Shown here: in pieces, positions 12,459 through 52,652 of the stretch
How positions within the stretch are numbered: the first letter of the stretch is position 1
How the letters are laid out: each line of letters opens with the position of its first letter
Assembly: GCF_024700885.2 (NCBI RefSeq)
Contig: NZ_CP117016.1
Source: Escherichia coli
Lineage (GTDB): Bacteria; Pseudomonadota; Gammaproteobacteria; Enterobacterales; Enterobacteriaceae
DNA: 64,000 nt
Direction: 5' to 3' (one strand)
Notes under the pieces: generated by a model
The model's input: only the letters and a program-made list of their open reading frames with translations
Told to the model about the DNA's origin: nothing
Databases searched by the model: none
Made by a program: the position numbers and the translations under genes

Positions 12459-13712
12459 TTATTGTGGTTCATTTTTACTCAAAAACGATATAGACAGGAA
12501 GAGGCACACAATCCACGATGCCGGTATTGGTTTAGCATGTGTAATGACATCACTAATGCCAAATAACATAATAGAAGCAGGGAAAACCAAGAGTATATAT
12601 TTTTTCTCTCGTATACAGTAATAGATCATTGCAACATAGAACATAATAAGAACAAGAAGACCAATTTTTCCTTTCGTGGAAAGAGATTCCACAATTTCGT
12701 TATGCATATGTACATCAAGGAATAATAAAGCTCCACTATAAATATTATTTTCTGCACTTAATGCTTTTATCTTTTCAGCACGCTGCTCAAGAGATTGCCA
12801 ATTAAAACCATCAGGACTTCCTTTAATTCCTGCATTAACCATTGCAAAACGTGCTCCGACCGAGGATTGACTGTTATTTTTTGTAGCATATGAAATAACA
12901 TCAGCTTTTAATGAATTAATTCGCCTATCAATTTCCTTATTAAATATCAAACCACAAGCAAGTAGCAATATAAAAACACCACTCAATCCTTTAAATAAAA
13001 ACACTTTTTGATCACGATGCTGAAGAAATAATATGACCATAATCATAAGTGGGAATGTGAAAATTGCCGCACGCGTTCCTGTCATCATTACTGCTGCAAA
13101 GCTTAAAGCAAAGTTAGCATAAAATAGAAACCATTTATATTTCGATTGCATTTTTATGAATACAATTGAAGAATATAAAGTTGTAAATGTAATCACATAA
13201 GCCGCAATAGTCGCTGCCCCCATCTGACCAATATTCCCATTCATGGCGGAGAGGGGAATGCGGTCTGCATGCAAATATATCCCTTGATAATATGCTCTAC
13301 ATAGCATGATTATTTGAACTAAGATAGCTGAAATAAAATGTAGTTTTTCATTTTGCCTGAATTTATTTTTACTTAGTAATAAAAATGTCAACGAGCTAAA
13401 TACTAATAGTTTTCCAGACTCAAGGTAGCCTCGATAAGCATTTCTATATACTACATCTTCTGTTTTATAAAATTCATACCATATAAGGTTCATTGCACCC
13501 AAAAGAAGTAAACCAAGAATTAATATAATGACATTTTTATTATAATTGTGCTTTTTATTTACAATTAATAAGAAAAGAGAAAATGCACCTGTCGCATTAA
13601 TTATTTTAGTGGTGATATTAAGATCAATTGGCACAAACAACAAACCGATTAAATACAATAAAAAAATAAAATTACAGCTATTATTTCGAAATTGCTCAAT
13701 TTTTACTTCCAC
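12459..13712 (-). CDS. waaL: O-antigen ligase (WaaL family), polytopic membrane protein
   Basis: 417-aa very hydrophobic AT-rich ORF at the distal end of the minus-strand outer-core operon; the position WaaL occupies in R1/R3/R4 core types. Confidence 0.8.
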   Translation of the reverse strand: MEVKIEQFRNNSCNFIFLLYLIGLLFVPIDLNITTKIINATGAFSLFLLIVNKKHNYNKNVIILILGLLLLGAMNLIWYEFYKTEDVVYRNAYRGYLESGKLLVFSSLTFLLLSKNKFRQNEKLHFISAILVQIIMLCRAYYQGIYLHADRIPLSAMNGNIGQMGAATIAAYVITFTTLYSSIVFIKMQSKYKWFLFYANFALSFAAVMMTGTRAAIFTFPLMIMVILFLQHRDQKVFLFKGLSGVFILLLACGLIFNKEIDRRINSLKADVISYATKNNSQSSVGARFAMVNAGIKGSPDGFNWQSLEQRAEKIKALSAENNIYSGALLFLDVHMHNEIVESLSTKGKIGLLVLIMFYVAMIYYCIREKKYILLVFPASIMLFGISDVITHAKPIPASWIVCLFLSISFLSKNEPQ

Positions 13713-13746
13713 GTTAATATCTCACAACAAATTGAAATTAACAATC

Positions 13747-14520
13747 TCATTTCAAAAGAGAAAAAAAAGCCACCTTTATCCAGGAGCGTATAAACTTCAT
13801 TCTTTTCTGAAGCCTTGTTCTAGGTTGTTTTTTTTCCGATGTTAATAGCCTTTCACTTTCAAGATGACTATTAAACTCATTTAAAATAGGATGTAATATT
13901 ATTTCGTCTAAATAAAACTCTTTTATAATATTATGTTGATGCATTAACTTCCAGCTATCAGCTCGATAGGTGCCATAATCCTTTGTCAATTTGAGCAACT
14001 TTTGTGCCATATCTTTATTCATCAAATATGAACATGTACGACGAATTTTATTTTTATTGAAATTAACACGCCGAAAAGTACAAGTACTTACCTTAACTTT
14101 ACTAAAAAGGCTTTGCCCCAATACCGGATAATCATGTAATCCTTTCTGTCCTCCAAGCAAATACAAATTATTATGTTTTAACTTGTCTTTTTCAGGAAGA
14201 TTAAAATATTGCAGAAATTTTTTAAATTTCTCATTGACGATAACATCATCCTCGAGAATGACTGCCCATTCTATATTTTTATCTATCATATCCTTATATA
14301 TAAGCTGATGACTTAATGTACAAGCAATTTCTCCATCAGTCATTTCTGCGCCGACACCACTTAATCTCATTTTATCAATAATTTCTTTATTTTGAGGGTC
14401 TTTAGCATCTATGGCATCAAAAAAATCAAAATTAATATTTAATCGATGAAAAACATCATTTATTTTATTTCTTCGCTCAATATCTCTTTTAAGTGAGACA
14501 ATATAAATGGGCAGGTTCAT
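13747..14520 (-). CDS. outer-core beta-glycosyltransferase, GT25 (Lic2A/LgtB-like) family; WaaV/WaaX position
   Basis: 257-aa ORF beginning IYIVSLKRDIERR, typical GT25 N-terminus; cannot decide WaaV (R1) versus WaaX (R4) without alignment. Confidence 0.7.
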   Translation of the reverse strand: MNLPIYIVSLKRDIERRNKINDVFHRLNINFDFFDAIDAKDPQNKEIIDKMRLSGVGAEMTDGEIACTLSHQLIYKDMIDKNIEWAVILEDDVIVNEKFKKFLQYFNLPEKDKLKHNNLYLLGGQKGLHDYPVLGQSLFSKVKVSTCTFRRVNFNKNKIRRTCSYLMNKDMAQKLLKLTKDYGTYRADSWKLMHQHNIIKEFYLDEIILHPILNEFNSHLESERLLTSEKKQPRTRLQKRMKFIRSWIKVAFFSLLK

Positions 14521-14551
14521 TAAAAAATCTCTGGGTGATTAATCTTAATAA

Positions 14552-15580
14552 TTATTTGGAAAAATGCTTACGCGCTATTTTCTTACTATAATAGAGCATG
14601 AAATAGTAAAATGAAGATGCAATATTACCATTTCTTTTCAAATGTCCGGATTTCACTTGATACTGCTTTTCATTCGTGGCTGGAATAAACGCCACATCAT
14701 TCCAGCAAGAAGCCTGATAAGCCTCATTAAAATACTTCTGGCAGGGATAATTCGTCCAGTCGTTCCAGGGCTTCGTTACGCCAACATAATGAATCAGCTT
14801 AGTATCATCGGTAATGGTCTTTTTATAATCTTCATCGCTTTTATTTTTTAACTCATAGTCAATGCCATAAAAGCAATCATAATCGCCGCTAATAAAAATA
14901 CAATGACCAAAGAACAGAATATTTAAAATATCCTGATCAAGGCATTTATACTTCGTATGCTGCGGGTCACTTGCCAGCATAGCAATGGCTTTATTCATAA
15001 AATCATTTTTCGCCCATGCTTCAAGCTGCAGATATACTACACCGGCGTTGAAATAATTACCTGGAAGTCCCTCTATAGCCAGACGCTTCGCTGGTTTTTC
15101 CTGCATAAAAGGCACATCTTTAATAACAGCTGCGAACTTATCGCCATCAAAATTAATATCAAGCAATCCAGCTAATGAGCCTTTACAGATGACATCAGCA
15201 TCGATATATAACAGATTTTCAATAACTTCACTCAGATACTGGAACGCAACTAAACGGAAGAATGTTGCATAAGACCACTGTTTCAGGCTGGGGAAGATAT
15301 CAATAAAGGCACTGGAGACTTTATAAATTCTTACTTCAACGTTAGCATTTTTGCTAGTAAAAGCGTTAACACGTTGTAGATAATCTTCATCAATGTAGTC
15401 GGTAAAGAGATGAAACTTAACCGCAAGGTCCGGGTTATGCATAATAACTGATTGCATAGATACTGCCGCACCAAATAAAAAGTTGCGGTCAATACCGTAA
15501 GCGATATTTAACACACGATCGGTGTTAGTAATTTTCCCAGAGACAGTGACTTCAGTAATACTCTCAGCTAATAAATCCAT
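14552..15580 (-). CDS. outer-core alpha-glycosyltransferase, GT8 family (WaaW-like position)
   Basis: 342-aa ORF with GT8 signature (YGID...NAGVVY...DQD); paralogous to the two GT8 ORFs at 16308-18336. Confidence 0.75.
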   Translation of the reverse strand: MDLLAESITEVTVSGKITNTDRVLNIAYGIDRNFLFGAAVSMQSVIMHNPDLAVKFHLFTDYIDEDYLQRVNAFTSKNANVEVRIYKVSSAFIDIFPSLKQWSYATFFRLVAFQYLSEVIENLLYIDADVICKGSLAGLLDINFDGDKFAAVIKDVPFMQEKPAKRLAIEGLPGNYFNAGVVYLQLEAWAKNDFMNKAIAMLASDPQHTKYKCLDQDILNILFFGHCIFISGDYDCFYGIDYELKNKSDEDYKKTITDDTKLIHYVGVTKPWNDWTNYPCQKYFNEAYQASCWNDVAFIPATNEKQYQVKSGHLKRNGNIASSFYYFMLYYSKKIARKHFSK

Positions 15581-15605
15581 GTTGGTTCCGTTTTGACTGT
15601 GTGGT

Positions 15606-16298
15606 TTACGCTTTGCCTTTTAATTTTTTAATAAATTTGCGTAGTTTGGTTCTGTAGATTACTGAATAGTAGCCATAATCTTTTATTTCGTTGGCAATAC
15701 CCAGGTGACGTTCCATGGCCAGACGATCACGAGCTTTACGCTCTGCCGTACAGCTTTTACCGGATAGGTCAATTATCCTGACACCATCTTTACTAACGAT
15801 AAAGTTACCCCGGTGTGGGTCGCCCGATAGCATATTTAAGGCATGCAATTTTTCCATTGAAGCCTTAATTTCTGCTTTAACATTTTCTGGAATAATCGGC
15901 ATATCATTGAGCTCTACGCCCTCGACATACTCGATAAGCATGATAAAAACACTGGCATAGTTGAAAAATTTACGCTCAGCCAGAAAATAAAAATCATTAG
16001 GAAAAGTAAGACCTGCACTTCTGACACGATCGGTTTCAACGATCAAATTCTGATAGTAGTCACCTTTTACAAAAGATTTAAAAAAACGTTCATTCCTTTT
16101 CGTTTTCGGAGCAAAGACTTTAAAAACATAGCGACCATATTTCGTATCAATCAACGATACTTTGGTATCATCAATATTACGTAATACTTTTACTGTTTTA
16201 AAATTATAGGCCAGTATTTCATCAAAGATTTCTTTATATTTATTATCATTATCTTTGTAATAAAATGAGAAGCCGCGATAACGTATACTTGTAATCAT
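15606..16298 (-). CDS. waaY: LPS core heptose II kinase
   Basis: 230-aa kinase-like ORF in the position WaaY holds in the core operon. Confidence 0.8.
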   Translation of the reverse strand: MITSIRYRGFSFYYKDNDNKYKEIFDEILAYNFKTVKVLRNIDDTKVSLIDTKYGRYVFKVFAPKTKRNERFFKSFVKGDYYQNLIVETDRVRSAGLTFPNDFYFLAERKFFNYASVFIMLIEYVEGVELNDMPIIPENVKAEIKASMEKLHALNMLSGDPHRGNFIVSKDGVRIIDLSGKSCTAERKARDRLAMERHLGIANEIKDYGYYSVIYRTKLRKFIKKLKGKA

Positions 16299-16307
16299 AA
16301 GAGTAAT

Positions 16308-17303
16308 TTATTTCTTAAGCTTGTACTTAATTAATGAAGTTATGCCTTTTATATACTCACCATGGGCAAACAGATGCTTATATTGTTTCTGCATTTCTGC
16401 AACAGTCCGCGCCTCTTTAAGAGGATATTTCTTCCAGGGAGATTGTTCACGCGCGATATTAAAGTATGATGCAGACGGATATCCAGCCCAGCTATGCCAT
16501 GGTTTAGTTATCCCTGTATAGTGAATCAACACTGTTTTATCGGTAATGGTTTGCTGATACTTTCGATGACTACGATCATAAAGTTCGTTTTTCAGGGTAT
16601 AAATAGTATCAAAATCCTTCGCAAGGTAGATATTATTCATATTAAATGCGATATTCAACGCATCCTGATCTAAATATTTAAGAGAGCCATATTTAGTTTC
16701 CCCTCGTAAAAGTTTGAGTAAATACGGTGTCAAATTTGCTTCATGCCATTTTTTAAGATTGACATAGATAACGCCTGCATTGAAATAACGTCCATTCATT
16801 TCGGGAATGTTGAGGCGTTTTGCACATGCCGCCTGAGTACTATCATTGTCAGGAATGACCGCAGCAAACTCATCTTTAAATATAATTTCTGTGAGAGGTT
16901 TCAGGCTTCCTTTACAAACAACATCGGCATCCAGATACAGCAGTGTGGAAATACTTTCACTCAGATATTCAAAAGACAATACCCTGAAGTATGTCGCGTA
17001 CGACCAAAACTGTGACGTCGGCAGATCAGCAAAGTATTTGGGGTCAATTAAATATACAATAATTGAGGTATTAAATTGTTTTGCTGTTTCATTAAATGAC
17101 TTTAAATAATCATCATCCACATAATCAGTGAAAACATGAAAGACAAAATTAATATCTGAATTATTAATCAAAACGGAAGAAATTGAAACGCCAGCACCAT
17201 ACAAAAAATTCTTATCGATACCGTAGGAAACATTTAGCTCTGGGGCGTTTTCTTTTTTATTATCTGCTAAATACGAAAACCGTTCTTTTATAAATTCATT
17301 CAT
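16308..17303 (-). CDS. outer-core alpha-glycosyltransferase, GT8 family (WaaT-like position)
   Basis: 331-aa GT8 ORF; paralog of neighbours. Confidence 0.75.
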   Translation of the reverse strand: MNEFIKERFSYLADNKKENAPELNVSYGIDKNFLYGAGVSISSVLINNSDINFVFHVFTDYVDDDYLKSFNETAKQFNTSIIVYLIDPKYFADLPTSQFWSYATYFRVLSFEYLSESISTLLYLDADVVCKGSLKPLTEIIFKDEFAAVIPDNDSTQAACAKRLNIPEMNGRYFNAGVIYVNLKKWHEANLTPYLLKLLRGETKYGSLKYLDQDALNIAFNMNNIYLAKDFDTIYTLKNELYDRSHRKYQQTITDKTVLIHYTGITKPWHSWAGYPSASYFNIAREQSPWKKYPLKEARTVAEMQKQYKHLFAHGEYIKGITSLIKYKLKK

Positions 17304-17319
17304 TTAACTTTTCTCAATT

Positions 17320-18336
17320 TCATTTTATTATCTTTAAATAAAAATAATAAATATAATTCATTATCCCGTTAATTGGTTTATTTTGTTTAAAATTATGCTT
17401 GGCGCAATAACGAGCATAGTTTGAGTTAACTGGCCGCATTAACGGTTCATTTTTCCAGGGCGATGCTTCTTTGGCTTTGATAAAAGGTTGCGCACTTGGA
17501 TAACCGGCCCAGTAATGCCAGGGTTTTGTCGGGCCGACATAATGAATTAATACGGTTTCATCATTAATTGGACAAACAAATGATTTTTTTAATTCATAAT
17601 TTAAACTAAATTGCGTATTGTATTTAGCATCAATGAATTTAACTTTCCCTAACAGGATAAGATTAAGGATATCTTGATCCATATAGGTTAAACGGGAAAC
17701 GATGGCTTTATCAGCAAGCATCGACATCGCTTTAGCAGAAACGGACTCCTGCGCCCACGCTAGTGTATTAATTAACAGGACACCTGAATTAAAGTAACCC
17801 TTTTCAAGTTCATTACACTGCAGACTTTGACCCCGTAACGACCACCAGTTAGCATCGCGTTCAGTAACAACAGCAGCAACGTTATTGGCAAGATCCATTG
17901 TTATCAGCGGCTTTAAGTTTCCCTGACAGGCGATATCAGCATCCAGGTAAAGGATCTTATCTTGTTGATCAATAAAGTAATCTGCAATTACAAAACGGAA
18001 ATACATGGCAATAGACCAATTTTTGGTCGTCGGTAATGCCTTAAGCCGTTCACAATTTACTAGATGGATCTGGATACAGGTACGATAGCTTTTCGCCAAT
18101 TGGGCTAAACGCTGGATATCGGCTTCAGGGATAGCATCAATAAAAACGTGGAAAACAAAACTCACGTCGTTGTTATGTAACAAAACTGACGTGATTGAAA
18201 CACCACAACCAAAAAGAAAGTTTTTATCAATGCCATAAGAAACATGGAATGATGATGCCACTGACGCCGCTGGCCTTTCATCGAAGATGATTGTCTTATT
18301 GATCATCTCTTGTGGATTAAAATAGTGGGCACTCAT
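17320..18336 (-). CDS. outer-core alpha-1,3-glucosyltransferase, GT8 family (WaaO-like position)
   Basis: 338-aa GT8 ORF directly downstream of waaP. Confidence 0.75.
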   Translation of the reverse strand: MSAHYFNPQEMINKTIIFDERPAASVASSFHVSYGIDKNFLFGCGVSITSVLLHNNDVSFVFHVFIDAIPEADIQRLAQLAKSYRTCIQIHLVNCERLKALPTTKNWSIAMYFRFVIADYFIDQQDKILYLDADIACQGNLKPLITMDLANNVAAVVTERDANWWSLRGQSLQCNELEKGYFNSGVLLINTLAWAQESVSAKAMSMLADKAIVSRLTYMDQDILNLILLGKVKFIDAKYNTQFSLNYELKKSFVCPINDETVLIHYVGPTKPWHYWAGYPSAQPFIKAKEASPWKNEPLMRPVNSNYARYCAKHNFKQNKPINGIMNYIYYFYLKIIK

Positions 18337-18351
18337 ATTTCTCTCCGGAAA

Positions 18352-19149
18352 TTACAACGATTTTCTAATCGTTCTTTCCCTGATTTTTGTGGCTTTTGCT
18401 TCTGCTTGCGACAGCAGCCCTTGTTCCTGCTTGAGAATGTCTTTAAGCGGGGCGACAAAATACTCTTTCATAAACCGCCAGATATCCCGCTGAGTCAGGC
18501 TAATATTCATCGAAGAAAAATAAAGCCCTATAAGATCTTTATCGCGCCAACGACGTGGAACGCGCGTGCGAAGCTGCGCCCGGTGCAGGTCAATTACCGA
18601 AATTTTTAACTCCTCTTCCTTACCGGAAAAAGGCAAGTGCAGCAGGAAATGACAGATATAACAGTCACGGTGGTTAATGCCCGCAGCATGCATATCGCGC
18701 ACCATCGTCGCGACACGCTTAATAAGCATACGCTTTACGCGAACATCTGGAGGGTTAGTCGCCCAGTCAGCACAGTAATCTTCCAGACTTATGGTTGGTG
18801 TCAGATCTTCGGTAATAATAAATGAAGTTCTGGTAAGCGGATTCATGCCTTTTTCGCCAAATGCCACCCCATACATAGTATCAACGCCGACATCCCGCAG
18901 TCGATGAATCGCATTCCATTCGCGGTCTGCGCCTAATACTGGCATCCGCAATGAGAGTAAATTTTTGATTATCTCTTTCAGGGTCGTGCCGCGATGCCAT
19001 TTGAGAAAATAGCTTTTGCCCGCCATTTCAAAGCGCAGAGTGCGGCGAGTTTCCAGTTCACGAAAAACCTCACCCTGCAAGGTTTTAACTTCCTCAAAAG
19101 GATCTTTACCACGCCATAACGTGGCAAACGGCTCTTTAAGTTCAACCAT
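18352..19149 (-). CDS. waaP: LPS core heptose I kinase
   Basis: 265-aa product from [21 protein letters not shown]; track ORF is 3 codons longer. Confidence 0.92.
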
Positions 19150-20266
19150 CCAGACCACCCGTTATGATATCCGCCGCTTTTTCTGGCAGACTGTATAAAT
19201 CTTGTGTATCAGCATAATGTCGCGCATTTTCCGCCCAGGCCTGGCGCAATGAAGATTGCGTTAACGCTTTGCGTAAAATCTCATTCAATGTTTCCTGGCG
19301 GAATGGCTCAGCAATAGCCTCGCCGCAATTGGCGTCAACAATATAATGCGCATAGCCACAAACGGCTGTCGTTAGTACCGGTAATCCTGCAGTAATCGCT
19401 TCCAGCAGCACAATTCCCGCCGCTTCCTGGTAGGCAGGATGCAGTAATAAATCCGCCGCCGCCATTAATTCCGAGACATCGTTGCGCCCCGAGAAGAAGT
19501 GAACATTACTGCGCACGCCGCGTTTTTCTGCCAGCGCCTCAAATTTTCGCGGTTTATCCTGCCCAACAACATATAGCAATGTGTTGTGGCGCAGCGAATC
19601 CGGTAACGAAGCAAGTGCTTCAATGGAACGATCGACACCTTTACGCGTGAAGTCTGAACCGACCTGCAACAATAAATATTGTTGTTCGGTTATTCCATTC
19701 TTCTTACGGAAGATTTCACGGCTATTAGCTGGCTGCTGGCTATATTTACGATCAGGATAAATCCCCGGTGGCAGAATATGAAAACGCTCCGCTTCAGTCT
19801 GATAATGTTTCTGGAAATCGGCGATTTGCTTATCTGTCAGCATCAGCAGCTGTGTCGGCTTGCCCTGTTCGAAGGTTGCCCGCTCAAAGGCGGCATAATG
19901 GCGATAACGTGACGTCAAGCGATAGAAAAAGCCTTTTTCCTGCGCTACTTTCTCGGCATAACAAACATCAGCGGCATAATAAACGTCCAGCCCCGGCATT
20001 TTGTTGAATCCAACGACTTTATCGACGGGATGTTCGCGTAAATGTTTTTGCACCCAGGCAAAATACTCCGCATTGCGCCCGTGATTGGTATGCGATTTAA
20101 CCGGCACTTTGATCAGTTCAAATACATCAGGGCATTCGCCTTCCCACGACTGGGTATAAACCCGAACATGATGACCTCGGGCGGCGACTGTCTGAGCAAT
20201 ACGCATAAAATCGCGCTGCAAACCGCCAAAGGGAAAATATTTATATAAACAAAAAGCAACGATCAT
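19142..20266 (-). CDS. waaG: LPS glucosyltransferase I (GT4)
   Basis: 374-aa ORF matching WaaG; overlaps the waaP start. Confidence 0.93.
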
Positions 20267-21321
20267 AACGACGTACCTGTCGTGGAGGAGGGCAGTAATT
20301 TATCGACAGCAGCAATGACATCTGCCGCCGGAATAACCGAAAGATACATCTCATTTCGGTCACGCTGATCGCGCGTTGGCATTTCCCGGTAATCTCCCGC
20401 CCAGAATTGAATCATGTTATTTGACCAGGGACGCCAGAAAATATGGTCTGTCGCACCAAACAGCGATATCAGCGGCGTATTAACTGCAGCGGCAATATGC
20501 GCCGGTGCGGAATCAACGCCAATAAACAGCTGCGCATGATCGATTAACGCACCAAGTTCCGGGAAGGTCACCTTTCCGGCCAGCGCCGTTACTGGTGGCG
20601 TCTGGCATCCCTGGGCAATTTCATTGACGCAGGCCAGATCGTCTTTATCTGGGCCGGACGTCAGAACGACTTCATAACCACGCGCATGTAAGGCATCAAT
20701 CACAGCGGAAAACTTGGCGTTGTCCCAGCATTTGAAGATTTGCCGCGCCGTAGGTTGGATAACCACATAATTTTGTCCAACACCAGCGTGATCAAGTTCG
20801 CGACGCATACGTTTCCAACTTGCAGGCGGGTAACTCATGGTTGTCTGCTTCACCAACGAATCAAGTCCCAATGGTGTCAGCACGGATAAGTTACTTTCCA
20901 CCACATTTCCACCCTGCAACGGCACCAAATGGGTGAAACTTTTACGCCAAAAAGCAGACTGCCGATGATGATAATCCTGGGAAATTTTCACACGGGCATT
21001 TAATAAGCGAACCAGTATAGCAACCATCCATTGATCGGTAAGATTAACGATAAGGTCATACTTATTGGCACGTAATACCTTGATGAGATGAAAAAAGTTG
21101 GAAATTTTTTCTGCGGCTTTTGCTTTTTTATTTTTTATGCCGTAGAGCGCGTTAATCTCTGGATTTTCAGACAGGATCGGGATGGTGTCCTGATAAAGCA
21201 GCACATCGATTTTTGCGTCAGGGTAATTTTTTTTCAGCGAACTAATGACGGGAGTAGTTAATAACATATCCCCATGAAAACGCATCTTAATGAGCAAAAT
21301 TCTTCGAAATGGCTTATCCAC
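20263..21321 (-). CDS. waaQ: LPS heptosyltransferase III
   Basis: GT9-family ORF, first gene of the minus-strand core operon; true start may be an internal Met (MRFHGDML). Confidence 0.88.
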   Translation of the reverse strand: MDKPFRRILLIKMRFHGDMLLTTPVISSLKKNYPDAKIDVLLYQDTIPILSENPEINALYGIKNKKAKAAEKISNFFHLIKVLRANKYDLIVNLTDQWMVAILVRLLNARVKISQDYHHRQSAFWRKSFTHLVPLQGGNVVESNLSVLTPLGLDSLVKQTTMSYPPASWKRMRRELDHAGVGQNYVVIQPTARQIFKCWDNAKFSAVIDALHARGYEVVLTSGPDKDDLACVNEIAQGCQTPPVTALAGKVTFPELGALIDHAQLFIGVDSAPAHIAAAVNTPLISLFGATDHIFWRPWSNNMIQFWAGDYREMPTRDQRDRNEMYLSVIPAADVIAAVDKLLPSSTTGTSL

Positions 21322-21370: not shown

Positions 21371-21382
21371 CACGCTACCGCC
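21371..21382 (-). promoter_or_regulatory. ops element (5'-GGCGGTAGCGTG-3') in the waaQ operon leader; RfaH-dependent antitermination site within JUMPstart
   Basis: Exact 12-mer read on the minus strand about 50 nt upstream of waaQ; ops consensus recalled from literature. Confidence 0.85.
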
Positions 21383-21733
21383 CCAGGCTCAACAGCTACC
21401 TGAATACTGATACCGCACTGATATTGACGCGCTAGTGTATCACTTCTTTCGCGGCAATCCGACCCGAATGATTTTTAAGCACATTGTTGATTTTCAATAA
21501 AGAAATCAATCAAATAAAATCATTAGCAACCATATTCTTTCACTGTTGCTCTGCGATTCCTTCCTGCACGTACTGCAGAAATCAATGAATCGCATAAAAA
21601 TACAAAAAAAGTATAGATGTTCAGCAAGAATTGGCGGGTAAATTGCTATTTAAGTCAAAAACGGGAAAAGTAATGGTAAAGCCACAGCTAAATACATAGA
21701 ATCCCCAGCACATCCATAAGTCAGCTATTTACT

Positions 21734-28320: not shown

Positions 28321-28962
28321 TTAAACGCCGAACTCTTCGCGATAGGCCTTAACCGCCGCCAGATGTTCCGCCATTTCCGGCTTCTCTTCCAGGTAAGCAA
28401 TCAGGTCTTTCAGGGTGATGATAGAGATCACTTTGCAGTTGTAATCACGCTCAACTTCCTGAATTGCCGAAATCTCGCCGCGCCCCCGTTCCTGACGATC
28501 GAGCGAAATCAATACGCCAGCAAGCGTCGCGCCATTGGCCTGAATAATTTCCATCGACTCGCGAATCGCCGTTCCGGCGGTGATCACATCATCCACCAGC
28601 ATTACGCGTCCTTGTAACGCGCTACCGACCAGATTGCCACCTTCACCATGGTCTTTTGCTTCTTTGCGGTTAAAGCAGTACGGCAGGTCCAGGTCATGAT
28701 GCTCCGCCAGCGCCACGGCAGTTGTGGTGGCAATCGGGATCCCTTTGTAAGCAGGGCCAAACAGCAGATCGAACTCAATGCCGGAATCCACCAATGCTTC
28801 AGCGTAAAAACGGCCTAACAGTGCCAGATCGCGCCCGGTATTAAACAGCCCGGCGTTGAAGAAATAGGGGCTTTTGCGCCCGGACTTCAGCGTAAACTCG
28901 CCAAACTTTAACACCTGCTTGCTAAGCGCAAATTCAATAAACTGGCGCTGATATGGTTTCAT
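28321..28962 (-). CDS. pyrE: orotate phosphoribosyltransferase
   Basis: 213-aa product from [13 protein letters not shown]. Confidence 0.95.
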
Positions 28963-29027
28963 GCCTTCGCTCCTCATCTTACTTTTCTACAGACAAAAAA
29001 AAGGCGACTCATCAGTCGCCTTAAAAA

Positions 29028-29744
29028 TCAGTTTGCCAGCGCCGCCTTCTGCGTCGCTACAATGGATTCGATTCCCCCTCGGGCCAGCGCCAACAAGGTG
29101 AGTAACTCTTCATGGGTGAACGGCTCGCCTTCTGCCGTCCCCTGCACTTCAATGATGCGCCCGTCTTCGGTCATCACTACGTTCATGTCGGTCTCTGCGG
29201 CTGAGTCTTCAACGTATTCCAGATCGCAAACCGCTTCGCCGTTCACAATTCCGACAGAAACTGCGGCTACCATCCCTTTCATCGGGTTGGTTTTCAGCTT
29301 GCCGTTTTCCACCAGCTTCTGTAGCGCATCTGCCAGCGCCACGCAGGCACCCGTAATCGACGCGGTACGCGTGCCACCATCGGCCTGAAGCACGTCGCAG
29401 TCCAGCGTAATAGTGAACTCACCCAGCGCTTTCAAATCTACTGCCGCGCGAAGAGCACGGGCGATCAGACGCTGGATTTCCATTGTGCGTCCACCCTGCT
29501 TACCTTTCGCTGCTTCACGCGCGTTACGGGTGTGGGTAGAACGTGGCAGCATGCCGTACTCTGCGGTGATCCAGCCCTGGCCCTGACCTTTCAGGAAGCG
29601 CGGCACGCCTTCTTCAATAGAGGCGGTACACAATACTTTGGTATCGCCAAATTCGACCAGCACCGAGCCTTCTGCATGTTTTGTATAGTTACGAGTCAGG
29701 GTAACGGGACGCACCTGATTATTGCTACGGCCTGCTGGACGCAT
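29028..29744 (-). CDS. rph: ribonuclease PH, full length
   Basis: 238-aa product from [14 protein letters not shown] with intact C-terminus. Confidence 0.93.
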
Positions 29745-29870
29745 ATTGAAATCTCCGGCTTGAAACAAATGTGGCTGCGCATTATACGGACTTCCGGCGG
29801 TTATTCCTATCCTGACAAGGCATCGATGGCTATAATCCTTCCACCTCTCCTTTTATAAACAGGAACGTCT

Positions 29871-30910: not shown

Positions 30911-30955
30911 TTGTAAACTTACTTTCCTTGCAATCGATATCACATGGAGTGGGCA

Positions 30956-31233
30956 ATGAACGAACATCATCAACCTTTTGAAGAAATACGGCATTATGGC
31001 ACTGAAGGGCAAGAATTTTGGTCAGCGAGAGAATTGGCACCGTTACTGGATTATCGGGACTGGCGCAATTTTCAAAAGGTACTGGCCCGCGCGACTCAAG
31101 CGTGCGAAGCCAGTAATCAAGCTGCATCTGACCATTTCGTTGAAACCACCAAAATGGTTGTATTAAGTTGCCGACCCCGCAGGTCAGCATCAAGCAATTG
31201 GAAAACAGTGTAAAAATTACAGAGAAGAAATAG
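30956..31233 (+). pseudogene. dinD: dinD (DNA damage-inducible protein D) remnant with large internal deletion and frameshift
   Basis: First ~70 codons match DinD (MNEHHQPFEEIRHYGTEGQEFWSAREL...), then the frame is lost; a different frame at 31160-31233 encodes the DinD C-terminus (LPTPQVSIKQLENSVKITEKK*). About 280 bp retained versus ~825 bp for the intact gene. Confidence 0.8.
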
Positions 31234-48878: not shown

Positions 48879-48973
48879 GGAAGATCGTCGTCTCCGGTGA
48901 GGCGGCTGGACTTCAAATCCAGTTGGGGCCGCCAGCGGTCCCGGGCAGGTTCGACTCCTGTGATCTTCCGCCA
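48879..48973 (+). tRNA. selC: tRNA-Sec (selenocysteine, UCA anticodon), 95 nt including CCA
   Basis: Sequence GGAAGATCGTCGTCTCCGGTGAGGCGGCTGGACTTCAAATCCAGTTGGGGCCGCCAGCGGTCCCGGGCAGGTTCGACTCCTGTGATCTTCCGCCA read directly; long extra arm and 8-bp acceptor stem typical of tRNA-Sec. Confidence 0.97.
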
Positions 48974-49611
48974 AAATGCCTCTTCATACGTTCTCCAACC
49001 CCTTGTAATACTGTCAATCCAGAGATTTTCTATCTGCTCAATATTCAATCGGCTTCAGGAATACCTGATCAAAGGATTTGTGATGGACGATGAGCGACAG
49101 AAGAATCCGCCTGTCGGTTCTTCTGTCCTCGAACGCATCCGCGATATTCGCGCCAGCATGCGCCGTGTTTATTTGCAGGTGATTTGCCCCCTGCTGACTC
49201 TCAGCCAACTGTATCGCCATTAAGGTGAAGATGTTGTTTTACACGCCCCAGAACACCCTTTTTTTATACGATGATTCTATTCCTTTAACCGCTGGCGAAA
49301 AAAACTGACCTATAAACTTCACCAATAATCAGACTGCCATCAAGATTAATTTGTTCATTTAATATATCAAATAAACTTGTTTTATTTTTACTATCAAAAA
49401 TAGCTCATTGCCTTACTATAATTAATATATAAATTCGGTAATTAATTCTTAACATGCTTTTGCTAATAATCTCAATTGCTGGCCCTATAATATTGCGCTA
49501 GCATTGCTTTCTGGTTGTATCAGCGATACTCAAAAATTCTTAATATAATACTCATTCGACTGGTACTTATTTGTAACTCAGTTATATTTTGTCGCCCGGT
49601 GATTCAGAAGA

Positions 49612-50796
49612 ATGCAAAAAACGGCTACCACTCCATCAAAAATACTTGATCTCACTGCCGCGGCATTTTTACTTGTCGCCTTTCTGACTGGTATTGCGGG
49701 CGCTCTCCAGACTCCCACCCTAAGTATATTCCTCGCAGATGAACTGAAAGCCCGTCCTATAATGGTAGGTTTTTTCTTCACCGGTAGCGCTATTATGGGA
49801 ATTCTGGTCAGTCAATTTCTGGCAAGGCACTCCGATAAACAAGGCGACCGTAAATTACTGATCCTGCTATGTTGCTTATTTGGAGTGCTGGCCTGCACGC
49901 TTTTTGCGTGGAATCGCAACTACTTCATTCTCCTCTCTACGGGCGTACTTCTGAGTAGTTTTGCTTCCACTGCAAACCCGCAAATGTTCGCCCTCGCCCG
50001 TGAACACGCCGACAGAACAGGTCGTGAGACGGTCATGTTCAGTACATTTTTACGTGCTCAGATCTCGCTTGCCTGGGTTATCGGGCCACCGCTCGCTTAT
50101 GAGCTGGCAATGGGATTTAGTTTTAAAGTGATGTATCTCACCGCTGCCATCGCATTTGTTATTTGCGGGCTGATAGTCTGGTTGTTTTTGCCATCAATAC
50201 AAAGAAATATTCCTGTCGTTACCCAACCCGTAGAAATTTTACCCTCCATCCATAGAAAGCGGGATACACGGCTACTTTTTGTGGTCTGTTCAATGATGTG
50301 GGCGGCGAATAATCTCTACATGATAAATATGCCGCTATTTATTATTGATGAACTGCATCTAACCGATAAACTGGCTGGAGAAATGATTGGTATCGCTGCC
50401 GGTCTGGAAATTCCGATGATGTTAATCGCAGGCTATTACATGAAACGTATTGGCAAGCGACTATTAATGCTCATTGCTATCGTGAGTGGTATGTGTTTTT
50501 ACGCCAGCGTACTCATGGCGACGACTCCGGCAGTAGAGCTGGAATTGCAAATTCTAAATGCCATCTTCCTTGGTATTCTCTGTGGTATCGGCATGCTTTA
50601 TTTTCAGGACCTGATGCCTGAAAAAATAGGTTCTGCGACAACATTATATGCAAATACCTCACGCGTCGGCTGGATTATCGCCGGCTCTGTTGACGGAATT
50701 ATGGTTGAAATCTGGAGCTACCACGCGTTGTTCTGGCTGGCGATAGGTATGTTGGGTATTGCGATGATTTGCCTGCTGTTTATTAAAGATATTTAG
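49612..50796 (+). CDS. setC: sugar efflux transporter C (MFS)
   Basis: 394-aa MFS ORF matching SetC/YicK; preceded by a long, very AT-rich leader. Confidence 0.9.
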   Translation: MQKTATTPSKILDLTAAAFLLVAFLTGIAGALQTPTLSIFLADELKARPIMVGFFFTGSAIMGILVSQFLARHSDKQGDRKLLILLCCLFGVLACTLFAWNRNYFILLSTGVLLSSFASTANPQMFALAREHADRTGRETVMFSTFLRAQISLAWVIGPPLAYELAMGFSFKVMYLTAAIAFVICGLIVWLFLPSIQRNIPVVTQPVEILPSIHRKRDTRLLFVVCSMMWAANNLYMINMPLFIIDELHLTDKLAGEMIGIAAGLEIPMMLIAGYYMKRIGKRLLMLIAIVSGMCFYASVLMATTPAVELELQILNAIFLGILCGIGMLYFQDLMPEKIGSATTLYANTSRVGWIIAGSVDGIMVEIWSYHALFWLAIGMLGIAMICLLFIKDI

Positions 50797-50906
50797 CTCA
50801 CCTGTCTGGGCTAAGAAAAATCGGCGTGGCGCAAACAGAGCCATCCTCGCCATTTTTGCTATCATGCCTGCATACATAAACGACAAAACAGTATGCAGAG
50901 GGAAAA

Positions 50907-51830
50907 ATGGGTTCCACCAGAAAGGGGATGCTGAACGTTCTGATTGCCGCCGTGTTGTGGGGAAGTTCAGGGGTCTGCGCGCAATACATCATGGAGCAAA
51001 GCCAGATGTCGTCGCAGTTTTTGACTATGACGCGTTTGATATTCGCCGGTTTGATTCTGCTGACGCTGTCATTTGTTCATGGCGATAAAATCTTTTCTAT
51101 TATTAACAATCACAAAGATGCCATTAGTCTGCTGATTTTTTCCGTGGTTGGCGCGCTAACCGTACAGCTCACTTTTTTGCTAACCATTGAAAAATCGAAT
51201 GCTGCCACGGCAACGGTGCTGCAATTCCTCTCACCGACGATTATCGTCGCCTGGTTCTCACTGGTGCGTAAATCTCGCCCGGGCATTCTGGTTTTCTGCG
51301 CTATTTTGACATCGCTGATCGGGACTTTTTTATTGGTGACACACGGTAATCCGACGTCATTATCGATCTCTCCTGCCGCGTTATTCTGGGGCATTGCCTC
51401 GGCATTTGCTGCTGCATTCTATACCACCTATCCCTCAACGCTGATTGCCCGCTATGGCACGTTACCGGTCGTCGGCTGGAGTATGCTGATCGGTGGTCTG
51501 ATCCTGCTGCCCTTCTATGCCGGGCAAGGAACAAACTTCGTGGTTAATGGCAGCCTGATTCTGGCGTTTTTCTATCTGGTGGTAATCGGAACTTCGCTAA
51601 CCTTTAGTCTATATCTGAAAGGCGCACAGCTCATTGGCGGTCCAAAAGCCAGCATTCTGAGCTGTGCAGAACCATTAAGTAGCGCGCTGCTCTCTTTGCT
51701 GTTGCTGGGGATCACGTTCACATTGCCGGACTGGCTGGGAACGCTGCTGATTCTGTCATCGGTGATTTTGATTTCAATGGATTCTCGTCGCCGCGCCAGA
51801 AAAATAAATCGTCCGGCGCGGCATGAGTGA
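50907..51830 (+). CDS. yicL: EamA/DMT-family transporter YicL
   Basis: 307-aa ORF with 10 predicted TM segments. Confidence 0.9.
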
Positions 51831-51833
51831 GAA

Positions 51834-52652
51834 TTACCAGCCAGGCACCGCGCCACCGTTAAAGATGGTTTCTGCCGCTTTAGCGACTTCGGGCGATTGA
51901 TAAGATTGCAGAAATTCCTTCACGTTTTCTGCATTCTTATTATCTTCCCGTGCCACCAAAATATTCACATACGGCGAATTTTTATCTTCAATAAATACGC
52001 TGTCGTGCACTGGAGAAAGCCCGGTCTGCTGAATGTAAGTGGTGCTGATAATTGCCACATCAACTTTGGGATCATCCAGTACGCGCGGGAGCTGCGCCCC
52101 CTCGAGTTCCATAATCTGCAAATGACGAGGATTATCGGTTATATCCAGCGCGGTAGGTAATAACCCTTTTCCCTCTTTCAGAGTAATTAGCTTCTCTTTT
52201 TGCAACAGTAAAAGCGCGCGACCAAGGTTGGTTGGGTCGTTGGGGATCGCCACTGTCGCGCCTTCTTTTATTTGCGCCACAGTTTTGATTTTTTTGGAAT
52301 AACCCGCCATGGGGAAGACAAACGTATTTCCCACCGCTACCAGTTTATAACCATGCGCCTGATTATCTTGTTCAAGAAAGGGGCGATGCTGGAAGACGTT
52401 CGCATCAAGCTCGCCATGATTTGTCGCATCGTTCGGTAACAACGAACCGCTAAATCCTACCAATTCAACATCGAGGCCATATTTCTCTTTTGCCACCTTT
52501 TTAGCGACTTCCGCGACATCTTGTTCTGCGCCATTAATAACGCCCACTTTAATGTGCTTTTCATCGCTGCTGCTCTGGTCGCAACCTGCCAGCAGAATTC
52601 CTGCCAGTAATAATGCGGCCCCCGCCCGTAGATGATGTGTTGTCAGTTTCAC
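51834..52652 (-). CDS. nlpA: lipoprotein 28 (NlpA/MetQ family)
   Basis: 272-aa ORF with lipobox (LLAGC) matching NlpA. Confidence 0.93.
   Translation of the reverse strand: MKLTTHHLRAGAALLLAGILLAGCDQSSSDEKHIKVGVINGAEQDVAEVAKKVAKEKYGLDVELVGFSGSLLPNDATNHGELDANVFQHRPFLEQDNQAHGYKLVAVGNTFVFPMAGYSKKIKTVAQIKEGATVAIPNDPTNLGRALLLLQKEKLITLKEGKGLLPTALDITDNPRHLQIMELEGAQLPRVLDDPKVDVAIISTTYIQQTGLSPVHDSVFIEDKNSPYVNILVAREDNKNAENVKEFLQSYQSPEVAKAAETIFNGGAVPGW

Follow-up and report, generated by a model that had tools for sequence, protein, structure and literature searches.

An intact and ordinary rph gene upstream of pyrE in a non-K-12 Escherichia coli genome

A described variant of the locus studied here is the rph-1 allele of Escherichia coli MG1655, W3110, and EMG2. 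According to statements in three papers, all citing Jensen 1993, rph-1 yields a shortened RNase PH and reduces expression of pyrE (PMC9997739, PMC11148124, PMC5933015), and the truncated protein is without RNase PH activity (PMC11148124; also PMC9997739, PMC5933015). The same statements ascribe the low pyrE expression of MG1655 and W3110 to a loss of close translation-transcription coupling at the intercistronic attenuator (PMC11148124; also PMC9997739, PMC5933015; citing Jensen 1993). Read-through at this rph-pyrE attenuator is described there as UTP sensitive and coupled to translation (PMC11148124, PMC5933015, citing Jensen 1993). The K-12 strains JM83, JM109, and XL1-Blue are rph+ (PMC11148124), and the K-12 line WG1 is without the rph-1 mutation (PMC9997739). 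At the protein level, wild-type K-12 RNase PH is represented by UniProt entry P0CG18, and structures are available for orthologues from other species, namely 1r6l (Pseudomonas aeruginosa), 1oyp (Bacillus subtilis), and 1udn (Aquifex aeolicus). Their fold family is common to archaeal Rrp41 and the PNPase core. No E. coli RNase PH chain was found among the top PDB matches in the copy searched.

We analyzed a 64,000-nucleotide (nt) stretch of E. coli DNA from contig NZ_CP117016.1, hereafter called the window. An earlier note on this DNA had described a full-length rph with a complete C-terminus at 29028-29744, and this description was borne out. The ORF list and its translation directly show a single open frame of 238 codons with zero internal stops on the minus strand, running from the ATG at 29744-29742 to the TGA at 29030-29028; the coordinates given for the gene are thus exact. 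A GGAG ribosome-binding site (29753-29756, minus strand) was read 8 nt 5' of the ATG. Strain 1190 (NZ_CP023386.1), a canine isolate from Edinburgh that shares 99.99% identity with the window across 41.5 kb, carries the annotation "rph: ribonuclease PH" (WP_001247093.1) at identical coordinates. The order of genes around rph is canonical (slmA / pyrE-rph / yicC). A longer version of the frame, starting at a TTG at 29768, was offered by the ORF list. It was rejected because the ATG at 29744 has the GGAG at proper spacing, agrees with where the TIGR01966 profile begins, and is the position from which the gene is annotated in strain 1190 and MG1655. Two antisense ORFs on the plus strand (29062-29388 and 29532-29858, 108 aa each) were set aside as presumed shadows of the rph frame.

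The product belongs to the RNase PH family, as seen directly from its matches. Residues 2-236 covered positions 1-235 of the 236 positions of TIGR01966, the NCBIfam equivalog for ribonuclease PH, with 380.8 bits against a curated cut-off of 141.5 bits. Both Pfam domains were present (RNase_PH, PF01138, residues 10-140, 107.1 bits; RNase_PH_C, PF03725, residues 157-222, 58.3 bits). The solved P. aeruginosa structure 1r6l could be aligned end to end, residues 2-237 of the window protein corresponding to residues 3-238 (E = 3.7e-104). The TIGR01966 score, the two Pfam domains, and the 1r6l alignment together show that the ORF is not a chance frame. Residues 224-238, the C-terminus lost in rph-1, are retained, and up to residue 237 they can be matched to the C-terminal helix region of 1r6l. 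Furthermore, the amino acid sequence is identical to the public entry RNPH_ECO24 (ribonuclease PH), which occurs on at least 1,000 contigs and shares with the window the length of 238 aa, the two-domain architecture, and the position in an rph-pyrE operon between yicC and slmA. Compared with the K-12 protein 5' of the frameshift, the window has A138 and T216 where MG1655 has V and I, respectively. These substitutions are not expected to cause a functional difference. In its 90%-identity protein cluster, this RNase PH is grouped with orotate phosphoribosyltransferases of 213 aa, which is probably a database clustering artefact, with fused rph-pyrE gene calls perhaps acting as the bridge.

Next to this protein-level evidence stands the comparison of the 1,550-bp rph-pyrE span with MG1655 (NC_000913.3), where rph is annotated as "truncated RNase PH." The pairwise alignment yielded 27 differences, of which 26 were substitutions and one was an indel. 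This sole indel falls exactly on the rph-1 site, with GGGGG in the window and GGGG in MG1655. The G5 homopolymer is located at 29074-29078 on the minus strand (C5 on the plus strand, in the context ATTCCCCCTCGG) and spans the third position of codon R222 plus codons G223-G224. The aligned site reads CGAGGGGGAATC in the window and CGAGGGGAATC in MG1655. The earlier note had contrasted the gene with rph-1 of MG1655 and W3110 and had proposed an alignment with K-12 rph and the pyrE leader to look for a 3' frameshift. None was found in the window; the only indel is a base missing from MG1655.

The consequence for the protein can be read from the two translations. MG1655 Rph departs at residue 224 and ends with ...ARGESNPL* (228 aa), while the window Rph runs to 238 aa. 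Thus, rph-1 concerns the same gene and operon as in the window and has an identical attenuator and pyrE leader, but one G of the G5 run is missing, residues 224-228 are altered, and the stop is at codon 229. The allele is defined by loss of one G-C pair and a 228-aa product, and the window has neither, so its rph is not rph-1. In the window, the triplet that serves as the premature stop in rph-1 is an out-of-frame TAG at 29057-29059 (minus strand; alignment columns 811-813).

Since the frame is intact, ribosomes are expected to translate up to a TGA beside the pyrE attenuator. On the same strand and directly downstream of rph lies pyrE (28321-28962, minus strand, ATG at 28962), which encodes an orotate phosphoribosyltransferase of 213 aa (TIGR00336, 240.6 bits) and is annotated in strain 1190 and MG1655. 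The attenuator between the two genes (28995-29022, minus strand) consists of a G+C-rich hairpin at 29022-29001 followed by a U8 run at 29002-28995. The hairpin has the sequence AAGGCGAC-UGAU-GUCGCCUU, the first two U of the U8 run forming the base of the stem. In the terminator scan the stem had 9 pairs, 5 of them G-C, and the hairpin appeared in the MFE as well as the centroid fold. As a whole, the 136-nt leader region had a fold with z = -1.36 relative to shuffled sequence, a stability that is not significant. Therefore, we call the attenuator from the local hairpin, the U-run, and identity with K-12, the rph-pyrE intergenic sequence showing no differences between window and MG1655. No Rfam family covering the pyrE attenuator was detected in a gathering-threshold scan of the window, in which the only matches were tRNA-Sec and JUMPstart, both located elsewhere.

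The position of the attenuator relative to the two stops was observed directly. The hairpin begins 5 nt past the rph TGA and 34 nt past the TAG used in rph-1, so the rph-1 stop lies 29 nt further upstream. The placement of the rph stop relative to the hairpin and U-run is the wild-type layout for translation-transcription coupling. How this layout would work we infer from the literature, as we do the activity of the enzyme. RNase PH is a phosphorolytic 3'-to-5' exoribonuclease that trims the 3' ends of tRNA precursors. With an intact frame, ribosomes would reach the TGA just short of the attenuator hairpin. When UTP is low, a ribosome close behind RNA polymerase could then disturb terminator formation, and normal pyrimidine-regulated pyrE expression would result. 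MG1655 and W3110 are one G short in this run and have their stop at the upstream position, which would leave the enzyme inactive and the coupling weaker. The polarity of rph-1 on pyrE, invoked in the earlier note, agrees with the lowered pyrE expression stated in PMC9997739, PMC11148124, and PMC5933015, each citing Jensen 1993.

Taken together, we are nearly certain that the window carries the wild-type rph of a natural non-K-12 E. coli, encoding full-length RNase PH and standing first in the rph-pyrE operon. No result of the analysis spoke against this reading. The gene is a familiar one in its usual state, and there is nothing new in its being intact. For the source strain, it means that normal RNase PH and normal pyrE regulation should be expected, without the pyrimidine-limitation artefact of MG1655 and W3110.

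How common the two alleles are was counted directly among the 5,424 matching complete genomes of E. coli, each of which has one copy of the locus. The exact intact (G5) 69-mer was present in 5,159 of them (~95%), and the exact rph-1 (G4) 68-mer in 168. When 60 of these 168 G4 genomes were listed, 59 looked like K-12 laboratory derivatives by their names, sources, or size (~4.6 Mb), including MG1655, W3110, BW25113, J53, and HMS174. The exception among the 60 was strain 2015C-3101 (NZ_CP027221.1), a 5.3-Mb human stool isolate with G4 in a non-K-12 SNP pattern. Its rph is marked "frameshifted" by PGAP (site at 1501-1568 of the NZ_CP027221.1 excerpt), and it was the only genome among the 5,424 to combine G4 with non-K-12 flanking SNPs. 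Its G4 may reflect either a separate slippage event or a sequencing error in the homopolymer; homoplasy of rph-1 is thus either a negligible recurrence or a sequencing error. That the G5 run is a recurrent slippage site in natural populations, giving rise to occasional rph-1-like variants with lowered pyrE expression, appears very unlikely. Because G4 with non-K-12 SNPs was found in a single genome and 59 of the 60 listed genomes were K-12-like, we conclude that rph-1 is essentially private to one K-12 lineage and that intact rph is the ancestral majority state. A further 3' variant was seen in the K-12-like strain NBRC 3301 (NZ_CP048439.1), in which 82 bp present in MG1655 are missing, and with them the 3' end of rph (~1500-1600 of the excerpt). 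An rph-pyrE deletion of equal size, 82 bp, arises repeatedly when MG1655 is evolved in the laboratory (PMC5933015).

The same counts bear on whether the intact frame might be an artefact of assembly or homopolymer calling, or whether the gene might be intact yet inactive through substitutions elsewhere. A 5-base homopolymer is a typical site of long-read errors, and 2015C-3101, with its G4 in a non-K-12 background, is a case that may be real or an error. However, the G5 sequence of the window recurs in the 5,159 complete genomes, at least 25 independent assemblies have exactly the same 1,550-bp span, and the protein is identical to the database entry found on at least 1,000 contigs. As for inactivity, inspection of the protein sequence revealed the RNase PH motifs R86, GGTR (123-126), and the acidic DSAAETD (180-186), which argues against an inactive product. 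R86 and GGTR would correspond to the phosphate-binding site of RNase PH structures. Both versions of this explanation are therefore very improbable, and we retain the reading as a genuine wild-type gene.

The earlier note had also treated the complete rph as a lineage marker. This held in the negative sense: intact rph excludes descent from MG1655, W3110, or EMG2, and with it an MG1655/W3110-type laboratory lineage as the source of the DNA. It did not hold as a positive marker, because intact rph is the majority state and is also present in several K-12 lines. Intact rph thus excludes neither K-12 as such nor marks any lineage. Far more informative is the divergence of the rph-pyrE span itself, whose 26 substitutions in 1,550 bp amount to 1.7%; the R4 lipopolysaccharide core and the eip island described below are also better evidence. 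All three show the exclusion of the laboratory lineage more strongly than rph does, and they uphold the non-MG1655 background that the earlier note had proposed.

Descent from the K-12 lineage would entail near-identity to MG1655 and a K-12 waa locus. Instead, the window was 98.2% identical to MG1655 over 4.3 kb, and homology to K-12 DNA stopped at 30988, within dinD. The waa outer-core locus, from waaL to waaQ (12459-21300), is of the R4 type. R4 typing primers gave an in-silico product of 380 bp at 14332-14711, the size as published, and in-silico PCR detected no sites in the window for the R1, R2, R3, or K-12 core-typing primers. Within this locus, waaX (13747-14520, minus strand; glycosyltransferase family 25) matches UniRef Q9ZIS2 exactly; this entry is a beta-1,4-galactosyltransferase, an activity that has been assigned to WaaX (PMC13293308). 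Of the "R1/R4" core type named in the earlier note, R4 is therefore supported by the exact waaX match and the 380-bp product, whereas R1 must be dropped, its primer sites being absent.

Relatives of the window were found among natural isolates. The whole 64 kb is colinear with canine strain 1190, with 6 mismatches over three overlapping alignments and no gaps. The rph-pyrE span was at least 99% identical in 177 of the 5,424 genomes, and at least 25 independent complete genomes, in which rph and pyrE are annotated there, matched it at 100%. Human isolates of serotype O166:H15 and chicken isolates carry the identical rph-pyrE allele.

We give virtually no weight to an origin from an rph+ K-12 lineage (JM83, JM109, WG1) or from an MG1655 derivative with repaired rph-1, which would make intact rph uninformative about a non-K-12 origin: rph+ K-12 strains and engineered true revertants are known (PMC11148124, PMC9997739, PMC5933015), but such an origin is already refuted by the divergence from MG1655 across the 1,550-bp and 4.3-kb comparisons and by gene content, that is, the break of K-12 homology inside dinD, the R4 waa locus without K-12 primer sites, the eip island, and the colinearity with strain 1190.

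Other features of the window were recorded alongside this analysis. A JUMPstart RNA element (21371-21409, minus strand; Rfam RF01707, 55.2 bits) is located upstream of the waaQ operon, as expected there. The dinD locus (30944-31233) contains only a BRO-N fragment, truncated and divergent, with 89 codons and 49% identity to the K-12 DinD N-terminus. In strain 1190, a 69-bp pseudogene fragment labelled DnaD overlaps the end of this fragment.

The selC gene for tRNA-Sec (48879-48973) is followed by an rhuM fragment and then by setC-yicL-nlpA-yicS. After yicS, in the 48879-64000 region, lies the known ETT2-associated eip/selC-B island with eicA, eipB, eipD, eilA, and eaeX/iatC (PMC7058095). Its products include EilA, a SycD-like chaperone, and proteins resembling YopB/SseC and IpaD/SipD; the giant inverse autotransporter IatC/EaeX begins there as well. 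Offset BLAST self-matches in iatC/eaeX (62630-64000) revealed that the gene is internally repeated in tandem, the period being ~291 bp and the repeats 84-89% identical; these are presumably Big-domain repeats.
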